A stretch of DNA of 37,748 bases from IMG/VR virus record IMGVR_UViG_3300026198_000003; one strand, written 5' to 3'. The DNA comes from a virus. A program made the translations under genes and the position numbers. Below the pieces are notes generated by a model that made no database searches, was not told where the DNA came from, and saw only the letters and a program-made list of their open reading frames with translations. Below, one piece after another: positions 2,750 through 10,592 of the stretch (positions are counted from its first letter, which is position 1; each line of letters begins with the position of its first letter).

Positions 2750-3504
2750 TCCCGTTCGGGCTGGAGTCGCTCATGACACTCTCTCTCCCCCTCGCCCGGC
2801 GCGCGACCAAGTGCTTCGTCCCCGGCGCCGCGGCCATCTACCTGTTCAACGAGGGCACGGGCACGACCCTCCGCGACTTCTCCGGCAACGCCTACGACGG
2901 CACGCTCGGGGCCGGTGCCGCCGCGCCGACCTGGACCCCGCAGGGCGTTTCGTACGACGGTGGCGACTGGATCAACCTCTCCTCGCTCGTCCCGGCCCTG
3001 AAGGGGCTGACCGAGTTCACGCTCCAGATCGTGTGCTCGACGACAACGAGCGCTCCGCACAAGGGCATCTTCGGGGCGGCGAAGTTAGACACCAACGCGA
3101 ACGCGATCCGCATCCGCGACTCGACGAACGGCAGCGCTGACGCCGATGCCGTCAGGGTGCAGGTGACCGATGGAACGGCCATCACGTCGCTCCAGCTCCC
3201 CGGCAGACTCACCGCAACGCCCGACCTCATCACCGTTCGATTCAGGGGAGGCGAGGTTCTCGAAGCCCGGAAGGGGCTATACGGCACATGGGCGCGTGAG
3301 ACGACGGGGGTCGTCGCCGCGACGAACGCGCTCGAAACCTTCACGTCGTTCTACCTCGGCAGGGCCGGCGACTTTTATTTCCGGGTCGGAGCGGATTCGT
3401 TCTTCACGGTCTACCCGACATTCCTCGCCGACGCGCAGGTCGACCAGAACTGCCGCGCCATTAACGCCATCATGGCGCCCCGGGGGATTGATATAAATTT
3501 ATGA
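2746..3504 (+). CDS. Concanavalin A-like lectin / LamG-domain protein
   Basis: ATGA overlap with the upstream gene (alternative ATG at 2773). The pattern LFNEGTGTTLRDFSGNAYDGTL...W...GVSYDGGDWINL is typical of Laminin_G_3-type domains. Confidence 0.6.
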   Translation: MIPFGLESLMTLSLPLARRATKCFVPGAAAIYLFNEGTGTTLRDFSGNAYDGTLGAGAAAPTWTPQGVSYDGGDWINLSSLVPALKGLTEFTLQIVCSTTTSAPHKGIFGAAKLDTNANAIRIRDSTNGSADADAVRVQVTDGTAITSLQLPGRLTATPDLITVRFRGGEVLEARKGLYGTWARETTGVVAATNALETFTSFYLGRAGDFYFRVGADSFFTVYPTFLADAQVDQNCRAINAIMAPRGIDINL

Positions 3505-4754: not shown

Positions 4755-5316
4755 CCCCGACCCCGCCGCCATGCGGGCCGCCTACGAGGCCGGCGCGAGC
4801 ATCGAGAAAGTCCGGCAGCAGTTCGGCGTCTCGTATCCGCGGGCCCGGAAGCTCCTGCTCGAGGCCGGCACGGTCCTCCGCCCACCGAAGGGCGGCACGA
4901 CGGGGGCGATGCAGACGAACAGCGCCGAGCGGTCGCGCCGCGTGCTCGAAGTGCTGAAGCTCATGCTCAGGGGCATCGACCGCCACGCGATCCACAAACA
5001 CGGCAACGACGACCTCGGGTGGGGCGTCGACCTCGGGACCATCAACGCGTACATGATCGACGCCCGCACCGAACTCAAGGCCCGGTACGCCGACACCGTC
5101 GACGAACTCGCCGCGATGGCGGACGCCCGGGACGACTACGCCCGGCAGCGGGCCCTGGCCGTGGACGACGTCAAGACGTTTCACAGCATCAACACCGAAG
5201 CCAACAAGCGCCACGGGCTGTATCCCGCGCAGAAGATGGAGCACGCCGGGCCGGGCGGGACCGAACTCGTGATCCGGTTCGTCGACGCGCCGACGGGGGA
5301 TAATGCAGACGATTGA
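4738..5316 (+). CDS. terS: Terminase small subunit (HTH N-terminus)
   Basis: Sits immediately upstream of and overlapping TerL. N-terminal HTH (ASIEKVRQQFGVSYPRARKLLLEAG) followed by a helical oligomerisation-type region. Confidence 0.6.
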   Translation: MIGSSDPDPAAMRAAYEAGASIEKVRQQFGVSYPRARKLLLEAGTVLRPPKGGTTGAMQTNSAERSRRVLEVLKLMLRGIDRHAIHKHGNDDLGWGVDLGTINAYMIDARTELKARYADTVDELAAMADARDDYARQRALAVDDVKTFHSINTEANKRHGLYPAQKMEHAGPGGTELVIRFVDAPTGDNADD

Positions 5317-7471
5317 AAAACAGGTCGCCCGCATCCCCAAGTTCGGGCGGTGGCTGGACAGCAGGACCGAGCGGATCCTCGTCGTGTACGGCGGGGCAGG
5401 CTCGGGCAAGTCCTTCGCCGTCGCGCAGCACGTCTGCCATCTGCTCCTGACCGTGCCGGACATCCGGATCGCCGTGATCCGCAAGACCCTGCCGGCGCTC
5501 CGCATCACCGCCTATCGGCTCATCCTCGACACCCTGCGCGCGTGGGGCGTGCCGTTCGCGCACAACAAGTCCGAACTGCTGATCACGGTCAACGGCTCGG
5601 AGATCCTCTTCAAATCACTGGATGACCCGGAGAAGATCAAGAGCGCCGAGTTCAACCTCGTCTGGGTCGAAGAGGCGACCGACATCGAGCGCGAGGACTT
5701 CCTGCAGTTGAACCTCCGGCTCCGGCGGGCGGGCGCGCGGCCCAACCAGATCATTCTCACCTTCAACCCGATCGACGCCTACCACTGGGTGATAACCGAC
5801 CTCGTCCAACAGGAGCGGCCGGACGTGGCCGTCCTGCACTCGACCTACAAGGACAACCCGTATCTCGACGCCGACTACACGCGGCAACTCGAGGACCTGG
5901 TCAACCAGGACGAGAACTATTACCGCATCTACGTGCTCGGCGAGCCCGGCGTATTGCGGAACATCATCTACTCGAATTGGACCGTGGCGCCGGCGCCCGC
6001 GGCCCGGCCGACGGATCGGTATTACGGGCTCGACTTCGGCCACACCAACCCGTCCGCGCTCGTCGAGGTCTGCCTCCACGGCGAACAGACGTTCGTCTCG
6101 GAGCGGCTCTATCAGACCCACCTCACCAACGCCGACATCATCGGCCGGCTGAAGGAGCTGGTCGTGCCCGGCTCCATCATCTATGCCGACGCGGCCGAGC
6201 CGGCCCGGATCGAGGAGATCAAGCGGGCCGGGTTCCGGTGCCTCGCGGCGGACAAGAGCGTGAAGGACGGTATCGACTACGTCAAGCGGATCCGGCTGCA
6301 CATCGACCCGGCGTCGGCCAACCTCATCAGCGAGATCCGGGCGTACAAGTACCGCGAGGACCGCGGCGGGCGCGTCCTCGAGGAGCCCGTGAAGTTCAAC
6401 GACCACCTCTGCCTGACCGCCGACACGCTCATCGAAACGACCGAGGGCCAACTATGGATCAACCAGATCAAACCGGGAATGGAGGTGCTCACCTCCGATG
6501 GCTACCACGAGGTGCTCGCGGCGGGCAGAACCGGATATACACGAGACCTCCGATGGCTCTTCACCGATGACGGTTTCTGCCTCAAAGGGACGCCCGATCA
6601 CCCCGTTCTGACAGGAAACGGAACCTTTATGCCAATAGACGCCCTACGATATGGTGACTACGTATGGCGGTTGAAAGGGAATCCGTTGTGTTCAACGGCG
6701 TGGAGTTCCGGCGCTATCCCAACAGCAAGCGCCGGCCGGATCGCGTCTATTACCGACCCTCTGCAAACCACATCCGGGCGGGAGTCGGACACCTCCACGT
6801 CGAGATCTGGAAGGCCGCCCACGGGCCGATCCCCGACGGGCACCACATCCATCACATCGACGGCGACCCGCTCAACAATTCCGTCGATAATCTCGCGTGC
6901 CTTCCGGGGCACGACCATCTCTCCTGGCATCAACAGAACTCCGACCCCGCCCTCGCCGAATGGCGGCGCGGACACCTTGCAAATATCCGCCCGCTCACCG
7001 TCGGCTGGCACCGATCTGACGAGGGGCGGGAATGGCACCGCGAGCACGCCCGGCAGGTCGTGGACAACCTCGCTCCGGCGGATTTTGTCTGCGAGCATTG
7101 CGGGGCAACCTATCAACGGCTCCCCGTCGGGCAGCACCGCTTCTGCTCGAACGCGTGCAGGTCTGCGGCCCGCCGCGCCTCCGGTGTGGATAACGTCGTG
7201 CGGCGGTGTGACTGTTGCGGCGCCGGATTTGAGGTTAACCGATATTCCAAGGCCCGCTATTGCTCCAAGTCGTGTGGAATGCGTGCGTCTTGGGCGGCTC
7301 GAAAGGCCCGTCCCGGTCTATAACCTGACCGTCGACGGCGCTCACAACTTCTTCGCCAATTCTATTCTCGTACACAACTGCGACGCGACACGCTACGCGC
7401 TCTACACCCACGCCAAGCGCGGGAGCGGTGCCGGCCGGTTCGGCGTCGTCTCAGGAGTTCGATCATGGTAG
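5303..7471 (+). CDS. terL: Terminase large subunit precursor (PBSX/Terminase_3-like) interrupted by an intein
   Basis: Walker A VYGGAGSGKS, Walker B LVWVEEA, nuclease motifs GLDFG and DAAEP, and DHL|CDATRYA split by a 323-codon insert. Confidence 0.9.
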   Translation: MQTIEKQVARIPKFGRWLDSRTERILVVYGGAGSGKSFAVAQHVCHLLLTVPDIRIAVIRKTLPALRITAYRLILDTLRAWGVPFAHNKSELLITVNGSEILFKSLDDPEKIKSAEFNLVWVEEATDIEREDFLQLNLRLRRAGARPNQIILTFNPIDAYHWVITDLVQQERPDVAVLHSTYKDNPYLDADYTRQLEDLVNQDENYYRIYVLGEPGVLRNIIYSNWTVAPAPAARPTDRYYGLDFGHTNPSALVEVCLHGEQTFVSERLYQTHLTNADIIGRLKELVVPGSIIYADAAEPARIEEIKRAGFRCLAADKSVKDGIDYVKRIRLHIDPASANLISEIRAYKYREDRGGRVLEEPVKFNDHLCLTADTLIETTEGQLWINQIKPGMEVLTSDGYHEVLAAGRTGYTRDLRWLFTDDGFCLKGTPDHPVLTGNGTFMPIDALRYGDYVWRLKGNPLCSTAWSSGAIPTASAGRIASITDPLQTTSGRESDTSTSRSGRPPTGRSPTGTTSITSTATRSTIPSIISRAFRGTTISPGINRTPTPPSPNGGADTLQISARSPSAGTDLTRGGNGTASTPGRSWTTSLRRILSASIAGQPINGSPSGSTASARTRAGLRPAAPPVWITSCGGVTVAAPDLRLTDIPRPAIAPSRVECVRLGRLERPVPVYNLTVDGAHNFFANSILVHNCDATRYALYTHAKRGSGAGRFGVVSGVRSW
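6410..7378 (+). mobile_element. Intein (Hint domain halves) inserted in the TerL nuclease motif
   Basis: Starts CLTADTLIE (block A), has GTPDHPVLT (block B), and ends VYNLTVDGAHNFFANSILVHN followed by +1 Cys 7379-7381. It is in frame with TerL at 969 nt. Confidence 0.85.
6664..7323 (+). CDS. HNH endonuclease ORF nested inside the intein in a different reading frame
   Basis: HHIHHIDGDPLNNSVDNLACLPGHDHLSWH HNH motif, plus CEHCG..FCSNAC and CDCCG..YCSKSC zinc ribbons. Coding-type GC3. The ATG lies inside the Hint-N codons for GDYVW and the TAA lies inside the block F codons. Confidence 0.8.
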   Translation: MAVERESVVFNGVEFRRYPNSKRRPDRVYYRPSANHIRAGVGHLHVEIWKAAHGPIPDGHHIHHIDGDPLNNSVDNLACLPGHDHLSWHQQNSDPALAEWRRGHLANIRPLTVGWHRSDEGREWHREHARQVVDNLAPADFVCEHCGATYQRLPVGQHRFCSNACRSAARRASGVDNVVRRCDCCGAGFEVNRYSKARYCSKSCGMRASWAARKARPGL

Positions 7472-9441
7472 CACGAATCATACAGGGCGATTGCCTCGAC
7501 GTCATGCGCGAGATGGAGCCGGCGAGCGTCGACGCCATCGTGACCGATCCGCCGTACGGCCTCAACTTCATGGCCCGCGACTGGGACCACGGCGTGCCCG
7601 GCGAACGCTACTGGATCGAGGCGCTGCGAGTGGCGAAGCCCGGCGCCCATCTGCTCGCCTTCGGCGGGACGCGGACCTTTCACCGGCTGACCTGCGCGAT
7701 CGAAGATGCCGGATGGGAGATCCGCGACTGCCTCGGCTGGATCTATGGCTCGGGCTTCCCGAAGTCGCTCGACGTCTCGAAGGCTATCGATAAGGCAAAC
7801 GGGCGCCGATTTGAAGATCGGTACGCACTCGGGCGACATATCCGTCAGATGCGAGAGGCCGCCGGACTGTCCCGCACCGATGTCAATGCGTGGTTTGGGT
7901 ACGTCGATGGTTGCGAGCATTGGGAGCGGCAGGATCCCCACGGTGCCCGCGTTCCGACATCGAGCGATTGGGCGATCCTGAAGGGGCGTCTCGAGCTCTC
8001 TGACGAGTTCTCCCCGCTCGTCGAGCGCGCAGAAGCCGAGCGCGAGAAGATCGCATCTGTGAACGGATCGCGCCTCGCCGTTGCGCCCGGACAAGGGGCT
8101 GATCGGGGGGCGTGCGCTCTCGACATCACCGCCCCAGCGACCGACGCGGCCCGCGAGTGGTCGGGATGGGGCACGGCCCTGAAGCCGGCAGTCGAGTACG
8201 TCATCATGGCGCAGAAGCCGATTGGAGGTGAAAGGGAACAGTATATAACAGTTGGGAACCTATATAAAGTAGAGGTTCGGCTGTGGTTACTGTTACGTGC
8301 GAGTGTTGCGGGCGAGAGTTCGACGTTAAGCCCGGACGAGTACGGCGAGGCGTTCGCTTCTGCTCAATGGACTGCCTCAGAACTGCAAAGTACACTGGCA
8401 GATTTACGCGATCTGACGGATACGTCGCGGTTAGAGTCGGCGATACGTACGACCTTGAACACCGTGTCGTCATGGCGGAGCACTTGGGAAGAAGCCTTGA
8501 GCCGTGGGAGCAGGTTCATCACCGAAACGGCAACCGGGCCGATAATCGACTCGAAAACCTTGAACTCCTCAGCGTCGGCGCTCACACCGCAAGACATCAT
8601 CCGGGCCGCGATTCTTCGACCTGGCTCATGGTGGAGTGCCATACCTGCGGCAAACATTTTGAACGCCGCCGCCACGAGGATGCGCGGCACCCTCGACATT
8701 TCTGCTCTAGAGAGTGCTATCGAAAAGGGGCACATCTCACGCCCGGGCGGTCTCGACCCGACCGTCTCGTTTAGGCCGATCATCCTCGCCCGCGCACCGC
8801 TCGCCGGCACCGTCGCCGCGACCGTCTGCGAGCACGGGACAGGGGCGCTCAATATCGACGCCTGCCGGGTTGCATCGGACGATGACACAACGACACGTCA
8901 CAACTCCTCCTCCTCCTCCTATATGACGGGGCGGATCGGGGAGCGGCAACCGATCCAAGAGACGTATACGACGGGCAGCACGTTCGGCCGATGGCCCGCG
9001 AACCTGATCCACGACGGCAGCGACGAGGTTGTCGACATCTTCCCGATGCAGTCGGGCGGCGGGCAACCGAAGCGGCGCGGTGAGGCGGCGATGCAGAAAT
9101 CATATAGCGGGTTCGCCGGGGGGGATGCTACGCCCGGCGTCGGCCGTTCGTCCGGTTCGGCGGCCCGGTTCTTCTACTGCGCGAAGGCGTCGAGAGCGGA
9201 GCGCGGCGAGGGCAACGTTCACCCGACGGTCAAGCCGCTCGCGCTCATGCGCTACCTCTGCCGGCTCATCGCGCCGCCCGGCGGGCTCGTCCTCGACCCG
9301 TTCGCCGGCTCGGGCTCGACCCTGATCGCCGCCGTCGCCGAGGGCTTCGAGGCGGTCGGGATTGAGAGAGAGGCGGCATACGCTGAGATCGCCCGGCAAC
9401 GGTTCGGGCCGCTCGACCAATTCGCTGAGGCTACACCATGA
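7465..9441 (+). CDS. DNA methyltransferase (N6-A/N4-C, beta-class order), interrupted by a ~550 bp insert
   Basis: IVTDPPYG (motif IV) lies near the N-terminus, with NVHPTVKP and [10 protein letters not shown] (motif I) near the C-terminus. The ATG overlaps the end of TerL. Confidence 0.85.
8221..8775 (+). mobile_element. HNH-carrying insertion within the MTase gene (not an intein; host frame stays open)
   Basis: MTase-like sequence stops after EYVIMAQKP (8220) and resumes at [14 protein letters not shown] (8773). GC is locally lower (tatataaca, tatataaag). An HNH ORF sits in another frame. Confidence 0.6.
8283..8774 (+). CDS. HNH endonuclease ORF nested out of frame in the MTase gene
   Basis: GTG start with GAGG 7 nt upstream. 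[12 protein letters not shown]...[25 protein letters not shown] motif, with CECCG..FCSMDC and CHTCG..FCSREC ribbons. Confidence 0.8.
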
Positions 9442-10592
9442 AACTGAGAGACCGTATCAGACAACTCGTCGCGGGCCCCAAACCACAGCCCAAGGCGGCG
9501 GCATCGAGCGGCACCCGGCCGGACTACTTCCGAAAGTCGACGCGCGACACAGCGACGATGGCCCGGAACGCGGCGATCTACGAGTCCGGCGGGATCGTCA
9601 CGGCCGCCATCAAGGCGCCGGGGAGAACCGTCCTGTCGAACGGCTGGCGGCTCGACGGCGAAGAGGGCGCGGTCAAGCAGGTGCAGGCGGTCATCGACGC
9701 GATCGACTTCGAGACGCTGGTGTCCATGCTCGTCGATTACGCCTACGTCCACGGCAATGGGTTGGCCGAGATCGTCCCGTTGCGCGGCGGCGGGCTGACC
9801 GTCCAGCTCCGCGACCCGGCCCGGTTCCGGATCGAGCAGGACGCCTGGGGCAACATCGTCGGGTATCGGTTCGTGCAGGAAGACACGTTCGACGACTCCC
9901 GCGGCCCCCTGCTCCTGCCGGAGGAGATGATCGACCTCAACCTCGACCCGGTGCCGAACTCGCCCTACGGCCGCTCCCTCGTGTCCGTCTGCATCGACGA
10001 GATCCTGAGAGATGCCAAGACCAACGAAGGGCTCGCGAAGGCGATCGAGAGGCATGGATTCCCGAAGTACCATGTCGGCGTCGGGCAACCGGGCGAACAG
10101 GTGCCGGAGGCGGACCTGGAGGGGCTGCGGAAAGAGTTCGAGAACCTCAGCAGCAAGAACGAGTTCATCACGGGCCCCGACATCAAGATCTCGACAATCG
10201 ACGCGACGGGGATCAACAACTCGTCCCAACTCGACAACGTCTTTTCGTCCCGGCTCTGCGCCGCGCTCGGCGTGCCGCCCGAACAGATCGGGCTCGACGC
10301 GACGGGATCGACGGAGGCGACAGCGAACGTCCGGTTCAGGGCGTGGTACGACCGGATCGCGGCCCTCCAGCGCGTGATCGCGACGACCCTCAGCCGGCAA
10401 CTCTTCGACCGGATCACGGGCCGACCCGGCGCCTGCTGGATCGTCTTCGAGGACCCGTCGCCGGAGGACATGGCGAAGAAAGCCGAATGGATCGCGAAGA
10501 TCATGGCCGCGACGCCGATGGACCCGTTCGCCGTGCTGCCGCAGGAGTGGATTCAACAGCAGTTCGGCATCGACCCGACGGGGGCGGACTGA
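9438..10592 (+). CDS. Portal protein
   Basis: 384 aa. Positioned after the terminase/MTase genes and before the MuF-like gene. Composition and length are portal-like. ATGA coupling to the upstream gene. Confidence 0.75.
   Translation: MKLRDRIRQLVAGPKPQPKAAASSGTRPDYFRKSTRDTATMARNAAIYESGGIVTAAIKAPGRTVLSNGWRLDGEEGAVKQVQAVIDAIDFETLVSMLVDYAYVHGNGLAEIVPLRGGGLTVQLRDPARFRIEQDAWGNIVGYRFVQEDTFDDSRGPLLLPEEMIDLNLDPVPNSPYGRSLVSVCIDEILRDAKTNEGLAKAIERHGFPKYHVGVGQPGEQVPEADLEGLRKEFENLSSKNEFITGPDIKISTIDATGINNSSQLDNVFSSRLCAALGVPPEQIGLDATGSTEATANVRFRAWYDRIAALQRVIATTLSRQLFDRITGRPGACWIVFEDPSPEDMAKKAEWIAKIMAATPMDPFAVLPQEWIQQQFGIDPTGAD

Follow-up and report, generated by a model that had tools for sequence, protein, structure and literature searches.

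The window analysed here, a stretch of 37,748 nucleotides (nt) from an uncultured virus (IMG/VR record IMGVR_UViG_3300026198_000003), is a phage contig of 66% GC in which the genes for a large terminase, a DNA methyltransferase (hereafter methylase) and a portal-like protein follow one another. The methylase open reading frame (ORF) contains an insert which, in another reading frame, carries a complete gene for an HNH endonuclease (Table 1). A first-pass annotation, made from the letters of the sequence, had drawn attention to this nested gene and proposed that a homing-type HNH gene might live there unspliced, in a methylase that is translated straight through.

The host ORF matches PF01555 in Pfam (E 7e-25) and carries the methylase motifs IV (DPPY) and I (FAGSGS) towards its N- and C-terminus, respectively. 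The top Foldseek matches of the protein are CcrM, M.BceJIV, TTHA0409 and M.RsrI. Judged by its motifs and predicted fold, the product is a beta-class N6-adenine/N4-cytosine DNA methyltransferase resembling CcrM and M.RsrI. The same protein, with a later start (645 amino acids, aa), is on record from two contigs and six member sequences and is therefore no one-off assembly error. The nested ORF is offset from the methylase by one base, the methylase frame being the HNH frame +1, and matches Pfam HNH_3 (PF13392; E 1.8e-11, 44.0 bits for a cut-off of 24.8). Its HNH core, at approximately residues 58-105, includes the H-N-H motif with its terminal ...AH and is flanked by two CxxC...FCSxxC zinc ribbons (residues 6-31 and 119-145) in which the four CxxC-type pairs are intact. 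The nested ORF thus encodes an intact HNH_3 His-Me finger endonuclease.

The borders of the insert were obtained by nucleotide alignment to two uninterrupted methylases, P0021 (locus L083) and P0007 (locus L084), which are 74-78% identical to the window methylase. MAFFT shifted short homologs to one side at the junction and the borders were therefore read by eye from the printed flanks. On the left, homology with the uninterrupted relatives extends up to GAG 8194-8196. On the right it restarts at CCG 8776, from which point window and L084 show no difference over more than 50 nt. The insert-free junction in L084 reads GCATGGGAG|CCGATCATC, and the cassette lies between methylase codons E244 and P438. 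It starts with YVIMAQKPI and ends with TVSFR, its last codon, R437 (AGG), overlapping the HNH stop codon, which is included in the last four insert bases (TAGG, 8772-8775). Stop codons are absent from the methylase frame of the insert, and the third frame has nine of them. The GC content of the insert is 0.565 compared with 0.66-0.685 in the flanks, and GC at third codon positions is 0.595 in the HNH gene compared with 0.78-0.84 in the host parts. This composition is in line with a cassette acquired fairly recently from a donor poorer in GC.

Most of what the first-pass annotation had described is borne out by these data: the HNH ORF nested out of frame in the methylase, the two methylase motifs, the zinc ribbons at both HNH ends, the HNH stop adjoining the restart of methylase homology, the lower GC, and the methylase frame that remains open throughout. 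It had placed the limits of the open, lower-GC insert at 8221 and 8772, giving about 184 codons. The insert itself stands, but the alignment moves its limits to 8197 and 8775 and its length to 193 codons. Sequencing errors that make or break frames, which it had also considered, and a frame error fusing two genes were rejected, as the same architecture is found in about 30 independent loci.

Table 1. Coordinates of the methylase, the inserted cassette and neighbouring features in the window.
Feature	Coordinates	Strand	Remarks
DNA methyltransferase ORF	7465-9441	+	658 aa including the 193-codon insert; beta-class N6/N4, PF01555
Motif IV, DPPY	7546-7557		N-terminal
Last host codons before the insert, LKPAVE	8179-8196	+	uninterrupted relatives: LKPAWE, then directly PIILARAPL
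Inserted cassette	8197-8775	+	579 nt, 193 codons; ends TAGG; GC 0.565
Element-borne copy of the displaced strand motif, YVIMAQKPI	8197-8223	+	inside the insert
-10-like hexamer, TATAAC	8244-8249	+	39 nt before the HNH start
TAA closing the HNH frame	8265-8267		just upstream of the GTG
Shine-Dalgarno-like site, AGAGG	8271-8275	+	GAGG 8272-8275, 7 nt upstream of the GTG; GGAGG in most relatives, at an equal offset
HNH_3 endonuclease ORF	8283-8774	+	GTG start; 163 aa plus TAG (8772-8774)
HNH codon 89, CGA	8547-8549		rare codon
HNH codon 93, CTT	8559-8561		rare codon
Host's own motif copy, PIILARAPL	8776-8802	+	nucleotides identical to uninterrupted L084
Motif I, FAGSGS	9301-9318		C-terminal
Helix-turn-helix-like segment	~7825-7902		methylase residues 121-146
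Large terminase	5303-7471		carries a Hint intein
Terminase Hint intein (CLTADT...VHN/C)	6410-7378		
Second HNH_3 ORF	6664-7323		in another frame of the terminase intein

The insert does not resemble an intein or an intron. Read in the methylase frame it gives no Hint or intein match in Pfam and no family at E <= 0.01, and an intein was rejected on this basis. A Hint intein would show splicing blocks A, B, F and G, Cys, Ser or Thr at position 1 and at +1, and a terminal Asn; the insert has Y first and R last, with P at +1. A permissive Rfam scan of positions 5000-10000 found no intron or ribozyme family at E <= 10 and yielded just two chance snoRNA-like matches, so that these candidates were dropped. 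The absence of Hint blocks and of a group I core, noted in the first pass, is therefore upheld by both databases. The part of the insert outside the HNH ORF amounts to merely 86 nt, referred to below as the leader.

Such an arrangement, which the first-pass annotation thought might be uncharacterised, has in fact been described. An unexplained 202-aa insertion in mycobacteriophage methylases was named the "ShiLan domain" (Gosselin et al. 2023, PMC9957025) and was later found to hide an HNH gene in the third frame, the host frame being free of stops (Arsenault, Gosselin and Gogarten 2025, PMC11855218). The HNH stop lies in the insert's final four bases, the initial 11 residues of the insert mimic the 11 which follow the site, and no intron or intein is detectable (PMC11855218). 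The distribution of these insertions is disjunct (PMC9957025, PMC11855218). Using tblastn, the window HNH matches inside the gp65 coding sequence (CDS) of ShiLan (50.9% identity, 96% of the query, E 5e-37) and inside methylase genes of Bipolar, Filuzino, Pollywog, MISSy, Murica, OwlsT2W, Starcevich, Mantra and Totinger. Closest of all is g59 of cyanophage Cr-LKS3 (64.6%). Totinger gp66 has the same nested ORF, with an HNH 49% identical to that of the window and the duplication LKPSHEPVVVARKPH ... SAFEPIVVARKPL. All 16 matching phage records (ShiLan and 15 others) are annotated as methylase or methyltransferase, save one duplicate Mantra record labelled "hypothetical protein", and none carries an HNH label.

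The window cassette and the ShiLan insertion share a PF01555 host, a site after LKPxxE and before PIIxARKPL, an open host frame, the mimicry at the start of the insert, the two zinc ribbons flanking the HNH core, the lack of an intron or intein signature and HNH proteins that are 48-51% identical. They differ in that the window copy, of 193 codons compared with 202 for the ShiLan domain, comes from an uncultured 66% GC phage in which the methylase lies between terminase and portal genes. We consider it almost certain that the window cassette belongs to the ShiLan-type hidden HNH family. It is a member of a recently published kind, here in an uncultured high-GC phage. What our analysis adds to the published work is the identical nesting of the close full-length HNH relatives checked, the selection on frame openness, the coding signature of the HNH frame, the selection on a surrogate strand together with its modelled position, the -10-like and ribosome-binding site (RBS) signals upstream of the HNH gene, and a hint of dual coding.

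To avoid picking long ORFs alone, IMG/VR was sampled by similarity to the HNH protein. The close relatives (L003-L026 and L033; 42-69% HNH identity, most matches full-length) all lie inside a methylase ORF (25/25). In each of them the host frame is HNH +1 and is open across the HNH gene, and frame +2 is closed. The sole defect among the 25 is a single TAG in the leader of L009, at approximately 2972-2974, where its close relative L010 has TCG. L009 may represent a recently broken allele or a sequencing error. Both alternative frames are closed in the more distant, free-standing HNH relatives (L027-L050). Four bacterial metagenome-assembled genome (MAG) contigs, assigned to Betaproteobacteria, Pseudolabrys, Deltaproteobacteria and Cloacimonadota, show the same nesting, as does every close full-length HNH relative that was checked (about 30 loci from viral contigs, MAG contigs and cultured phages).

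The likelihood that the host frame is open by chance was estimated by permuting synonymous codons while keeping the HNH protein and its codon pool fixed (2000 shuffles). The +1 frame remained open in 9% of the shuffles for the window and in 0.15-75% per locus. Multiplied over 26 related loci, these probabilities come to about 1e-24.5, with an effective exponent that is smaller since some loci are near-duplicates and not all are independent. We regard this comparison as decisive: the open methylase frame is under selection, beyond what chance would provide. Moreover, insert lengths are multiples of 3 in all 20 cases measured (531 to 681 nt), and the motif X-I block downstream of the insert (HPTVKP...DPFxGSGST) is intact, with same-frame differences of.33/.28/.68 at the three codon positions in 18 insert-bearing loci. 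The DPPY and FxGSG motifs are invariant in an 18-sequence alignment which includes 12 interrupted proteins. The open frames, the insert lengths and the signature of the downstream block together argue that interrupted methylases are under purifying selection as single polypeptides, and this counts against inactivation, RNA splicing and ribosomal bypass. The proposal of an unspliced homing-type HNH gene in a read-through methylase gains support accordingly from relatives as well as from the window.

Among the best methylase homologs the segment is present in 77 of 115, at the same insertion site, a count inflated by the fact that the query itself bears the insert. The nearest methylases (74-78% identity) are without it and the carriers are at most 59% identical to the window protein. 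This disjunct distribution among close methylases speaks for mobility of the cassette.

Several further loci were observed in the course of this survey. Members of the same HNH family occur at another methylase site in L022 (~2986-3492) and L033 (~509-916), after GFPK.LN and before G..LKPA.EPI. The methylases of these two loci are shorter and their host frame is again HNH +1 and open. The flanks in L022, GFPKGLNV and KFKGFNV, may be a duplicated motif. L121, an Alphaproteobacteria MAG contig, carries a more distant HNH relative (match 1368-1757, 40% identity) within an open stretch of 638 aa that is in frame +2 rather than +1. The DNA match in Mycobacterium phage Bhagsy runs past the methylase over two small ORFs and gives no sign of a nested HNH gene.

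The motif split by the insertion is present twice. In the 77 interrupted homologs x-h-h-x-A-x-K-P-h opens the insert directly after LKPxxE, and P-I-I-x-A-R-K-P-L follows the insert. The two copies in the window, YVIMAQKPI and PIILARAPL, are identical at 3/9 positions and positive at 7/9. Mean identity in the family is 49%, and the two copies are 49% identical at the nucleotide level, which should limit deletion by repeat recombination as well as self-cleavage. The duplication of a diverged motif had been recognised in the first pass, together with the idea that the element brought a copy of its target. The upstream copy does lie within the insert borders and travels with the element across diverged relatives.

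In the 21 interrupted loci for which DNA was available, Ala and Lys of the element-borne copy are invariant and Pro is found in 20/21, all of their synonymous codons being used. Positional differences in the methylase frame are.38/.34/.68 in these loci. The stretch is not HNH-coding in the clade of the window, and the pattern of synonymous codons therefore points to protein-level selection on the translated element-borne peptide. Selection of this kind fits poorly with the insert being removed prior to translation.

The full protein was modelled with AlphaFold2 (115-sequence alignment; mean predicted local distance difference test score, pLDDT, 74.5). Residues 242-250 of the interrupted protein (AVEYVIMAQ) form a beta-strand in this model, and residues 438-446, the host copy, form coil of block-mean pLDDT 47-69. 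For uninterrupted P0021, AlphaFold places the equivalent strand at 197-206 (PAWEPIILAR; pLDDT 95), with a loop of six residues and a helix after it. The remainder of the insert is modelled as four helices with pLDDT of about 90 (255-346), less confident helices and a disordered tail (411-437). The models suggest that the cassette supplies a surrogate strand where the native one would lie, by which the insertion would effectively be shifted from a conserved strand into the loop behind it. A sequence search of solved structures aligned the DPPY and motif X-I regions and left the LKPxxEPI strand unaligned, so that AlphaFold alone identifies the strand.

Mimicry of the target is also seen at the other end of the insert in many relatives (P0010, P0025, P0047, P0058, L017, L018 and others), where RPNWE, SPAWE, KPNLD or EPAHE imitate the pre-site KPAWE and both junctions resemble the intact target. 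The subclade of the window, with TVSFR, is without it. The final insert residue is set by the HNH stop codon, TGA giving D or E, TAA giving N and TAG giving R.

Which of the two frames encodes the conserved protein was assessed from the distribution of differences among codon positions. In the HNH frame, differences at position 3 exceed those at position 1 and these exceed those at position 2, at all divergence levels. By this measure the HNH frame is the primary coding frame of the insert, and because it carries the coding signature, conserved host-frame strings such as VSSWR are explained as shadows of HNH motifs such as HRVVMAE. There are also hints that the host-frame peptide is itself constrained. 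In the same 15 loci four-fold sites differ at.455 in the HNH gene compared with.68 and.73 in the N- and C-terminal methylase blocks, and HNH is the more diverged protein despite this lower four-fold divergence. Host-frame identity is.381 compared with.290 +/-.004 in synonymous shuffles. Two rare codons are kept, CGA at HNH codon 89 (15/16 loci) and CTT at codon 93 (16/16). They lie inside the HNH DNRLENL motif, where the alternatives would create no host-frame stops, and in the host frame they specify D and L within a conserved D..TL string. Taken together, these observations are no more than suggestive of true dual coding, with shared ancestry of the mobile element as a confounder. A younger element was considered as the cause of the low synonymous divergence of HNH. 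Constraint is the likelier cause, a tentative preference based on two codons. The single-coding codons of the surrogate copy (Ala, Pro) are near saturation, at about 0.65 in a hand calculation from codon counts.

The leader carries predicted expression signals for the HNH gene. The TAA just upstream bars any earlier start and leaves GTG 8283, which lies 86 nt into the insert, as the point where HNH translation must begin. The GAGG 7 nt before this codon was found where the first-pass annotation had placed it. Leader length is nearly fixed in the clade of the window, LKP lying 104 nt before the start in 14/22 loci. TATAAT is present at -39 in 10/22 loci and at -36 in two more, and a 5/6 match at -39 in another two, one of them the window. 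Near -12, 17/22 loci have a GGAGG-like site (at least 4/5); at the exact -12 offset it is a perfect GGAGG in nine and a 4/5 match in six, including the AGAGG of the window. The conserved host-frame string of the leader, approximately ER-DII-NL-LEA-LW, is accounted for by these signals, since DII comes from GATATAAT, LEA from TTGGAGGC, and LW contains the start codon.

For ShiLan, expression of the HNH gene was proposed to involve a GTG near the insert start, no RBS and leaderless translation (PMC11855218). The window differs from this proposal in that the HNH start lies well inside the insert and is preceded by both a Shine-Dalgarno site and a -10-like box. Totinger (L002:1934) and ShiLan itself (L197:401 = NC_041988.1:44593) have, at the homologous position, a GTG with GGAGG four bases ahead of it, and the tblastn match of the window HNH to ShiLan starts exactly at this GTG. 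We infer that the HNH gene is independently expressed from signals of the cassette itself.

The reading that we favour, and hold to be likely, is that of a splicing-independent ShiLan-type homing cassette which is tolerated as a read-through loop and helped in this by its surrogate strand. A free-standing HNH homing-endonuclease gene would have colonised a conserved methylase motif without splicing. The HNH protein would be expressed alone, from the -10-like box (8244-8249) and the Shine-Dalgarno site and GTG (8271-8285) of the 86-nt leader. It would cut insert-free methylase alleles of co-infecting phages near GAG|CCG, and recombinational repair would copy the cassette in. Active homing of this type, with site-specific cleavage and copying, is suggested by distribution and composition only. 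The methylase would be translated straight through, AVEYVIMAQ standing in for the native beta-strand. What remains of the insert would then bulge, together with the displaced native copy, as a helical or partly disordered loop between this strand and the next helix, leaving the enzyme functional. Selection would keep the host frame stop-free and may partly constrain the host-frame peptide.

Several observations weigh against this reading. The preference of AlphaFold for the upstream copy may be an artefact of the alignment, and that the loop does no harm lies beyond what the model can show. The host copy is perfectly native, which a recent invasion explains as well as function does. The consensus promoter scanner calls no + strand promoter in the leader and no -35 element is established. 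The -10 box of the window is TATAAC and not TATAAT, which is why the scanner misses the leader, and the promoter inference rests on conservation in relatives. Finally, the low synonymous divergence of HNH and the insert helices with pLDDT of about 90 point to something more than a passive linker, a feature which a simple tolerated loop leaves unexplained.

Two alternatives that accept the translated insert survive best, and both are improbable. In the first, the insert is removed after translation, by non-Hint excision or loop cleavage that uses the junction mimicry, and the mature methylase is native-like. Such removal would likewise require the frame to be open and the element-borne copy to be selected as a peptide, and is in keeping with the 3' ends of many relatives, which mimic the upstream host sequence (KPNLD or PNWE before PII), and with the conservation of the host-frame peptide above null expectation. 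However, there are no Hint blocks and no host-frame Pfam match, and Y first, R last and P at +1 suit no known splicing chemistry. The 3' mimicry is moreover absent from the subclade of the window, and which residue precedes the junction depends largely on the stop codon that HNH uses. The second, to which we give equally little credence, regards the host-frame reading as a selected, folded helical module overprinted on HNH, the mimicry at both junctions serving non-Hint post-translational excision or processing. The open frame, the peptide selection at the 5' junction, the reduced synonymous divergence of the overlap and the four confident helices are in line with it. If true, an overprinted self-excising module would be a third kind of self-removing element beside introns and inteins.

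The possibility that the methylase is inactivated, already raised in the first pass, is slighter still. On this view the gene would be dispensable, the cassette purely parasitic and the openness of the frame incidental or transient. The phage methylase is reported to be non-essential (PMC11855218) and L009 has an in-frame TAG in its leader. The open frame across HNH in all 25 close viral-contig relatives, over 42-69% HNH identity, and the minute shuffle product argue against it. So do the intact downstream catalytic motifs, with purifying selection in 18 insert-bearing loci and invariant DPPY and FxGSG.

We place at the same low level the view of the segment not as a mobile insertion but as a domain native to a methylase subfamily and passed on vertically, with HNH possibly a domesticated partner. 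Conservation of the segment in homologs had been named beforehand as a sign of such a domain. It is formally observed in the 77/115 homologs, but stems mainly from the HNH frame and does not make the segment a native methylase domain. The published disjunct distribution (PMC9957025, PMC11855218) and the inflation of the 77/115 count by the insert-bearing query speak against this view. The four host-frame helices, the excess of host-frame identity over its null and the conserved rare codons at HNH codons 89 and 93 would agree with it. Yet the nearest relatives lack the segment precisely, codon to codon, its composition is foreign, the coding signature is in the HNH frame and not in the host frame, and the same HNH family occupies a different methylase site in L022 and L033.

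Least probable of all is a cryptic intron or ribosomal bypassing, with the duplicated motif as exon-like guides or as take-off and landing sites: neither would select an open host frame, multiple-of-3 lengths or a protein-level signature on the upstream copy, the copies are just 49% identical in nucleotides, the pre-insert GAG and the last insert AGG are unmatched with no stop after a would-be take-off, and a 579-nt hop would be more than ten times longer than any bypass known to us. The 5' end of the insert does resemble the 3' flank, as in some group I introns (PMC11855218), and only the 86-nt leader is free of HNH coding, but no Rfam family was found at E <= 10 and the published RNAweasel and structure tests were negative (PMC11855218).

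With group I intron-encoded or free-standing HNH genes such as that of I-HmuI, and with the intronless homing genes of T4, the methylase cassette has in common a His-Me finger (HNH) enzyme that bears DNA-binding extensions, a disjunct and selfish distribution, and predicted expression signals of its own. Intron-borne genes need RNA splicing and free-standing genes sit between genes, whereas the methylase cassette lies inside a CDS, is presumably translated through in another frame and, unlike either, carries a replacement for the motif that it splits. In T4 gene 60, ribosomes hop over 50 nt between matched GGA codons, with a stop after the take-off site. The gene 60 bypass element and mobA resemble the methylase cassette as a mobile cassette in a coding gene, neither intron nor intein, linked to an HNH-type endonuclease. 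The methylase cassette differs in its length of 579 nt, its unmatched codons (GAG and AGG), the lack of a stop and the open frame, and these differences favour translation through the insert over bypass.

Inteins with a homing endonuclease in another reading frame have also been reported, among them terminase inteins with out-of-frame endonucleases termed endonuclease VII-like (bioRxiv 10.1101/2025.01.02.630785). Here too the endonuclease ORF is in frame 3 of a host frame that must stay open. In the inteins, flanking Hint blocks splice out the junk peptide; the methylase cassette is without Hint blocks. The terminase of the window itself carries a Hint intein with a second HNH_3 ORF in another frame (Table 1). 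The intein frame is open through this ORF, and the same arrangement and offset (host = HNH +1) are found in 22/24 related IMG/VR loci.

Homing endonucleases favour highly conserved targets, where insertions are normally lethal unless they are spliced out as introns or inteins. The ShiLan-type family appears to manage without splicing, by keeping the host frame open and carrying a spare copy of the motif. The arrangement is no mycobacteriophage curiosity. It is old, with HNH identities of 42-69%, and widespread in uncultured phages, and occurs in proteobacterial and Cloacimonadota MAG contigs and in a cyanophage. The nested HNH gene is systematically mis-annotated as part of a plain "DNA methylase", and long "methylase" ORFs with an unalignable middle should therefore be checked in all frames. 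Since cultured carriers exist (ShiLan, Totinger, Mantra, Filuzino and Cr-LKS3), splicing, the proposed surrogate strand and the predicted internal promoter and RBS are directly testable.

The position of the methylase gene between the terminase gene and the portal-like gene is unusual for a methylase. Its ATG overlaps the terminase stop (ATGGTAG, 7465-7471) and its own stop overlaps the ATG of the next gene (ATGA, 9438-9441). The ORF which begins at 9438 we take to encode the portal protein, from its position and our own reading. The methylase gene is thus embedded between two late structural genes and is probably translationally coupled to them. A weak helix-turn-helix match in its middle segment (PF13560, E 8e-4) is below the cut-off. 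This segment is variable, being present in some methylase homologs and absent from others, which suggests a further optional module of the methylase family. In Totinger gp66 (L002 858-3182), a 775-aa "DNA methyltransferase", there is in addition an in-frame LAGLIDADG-like insertion near the N-terminus, YWLAGLIDGEGCF, without Hint blocks, which corresponds to the "lone LAGLIDADG" of PMC11855218.

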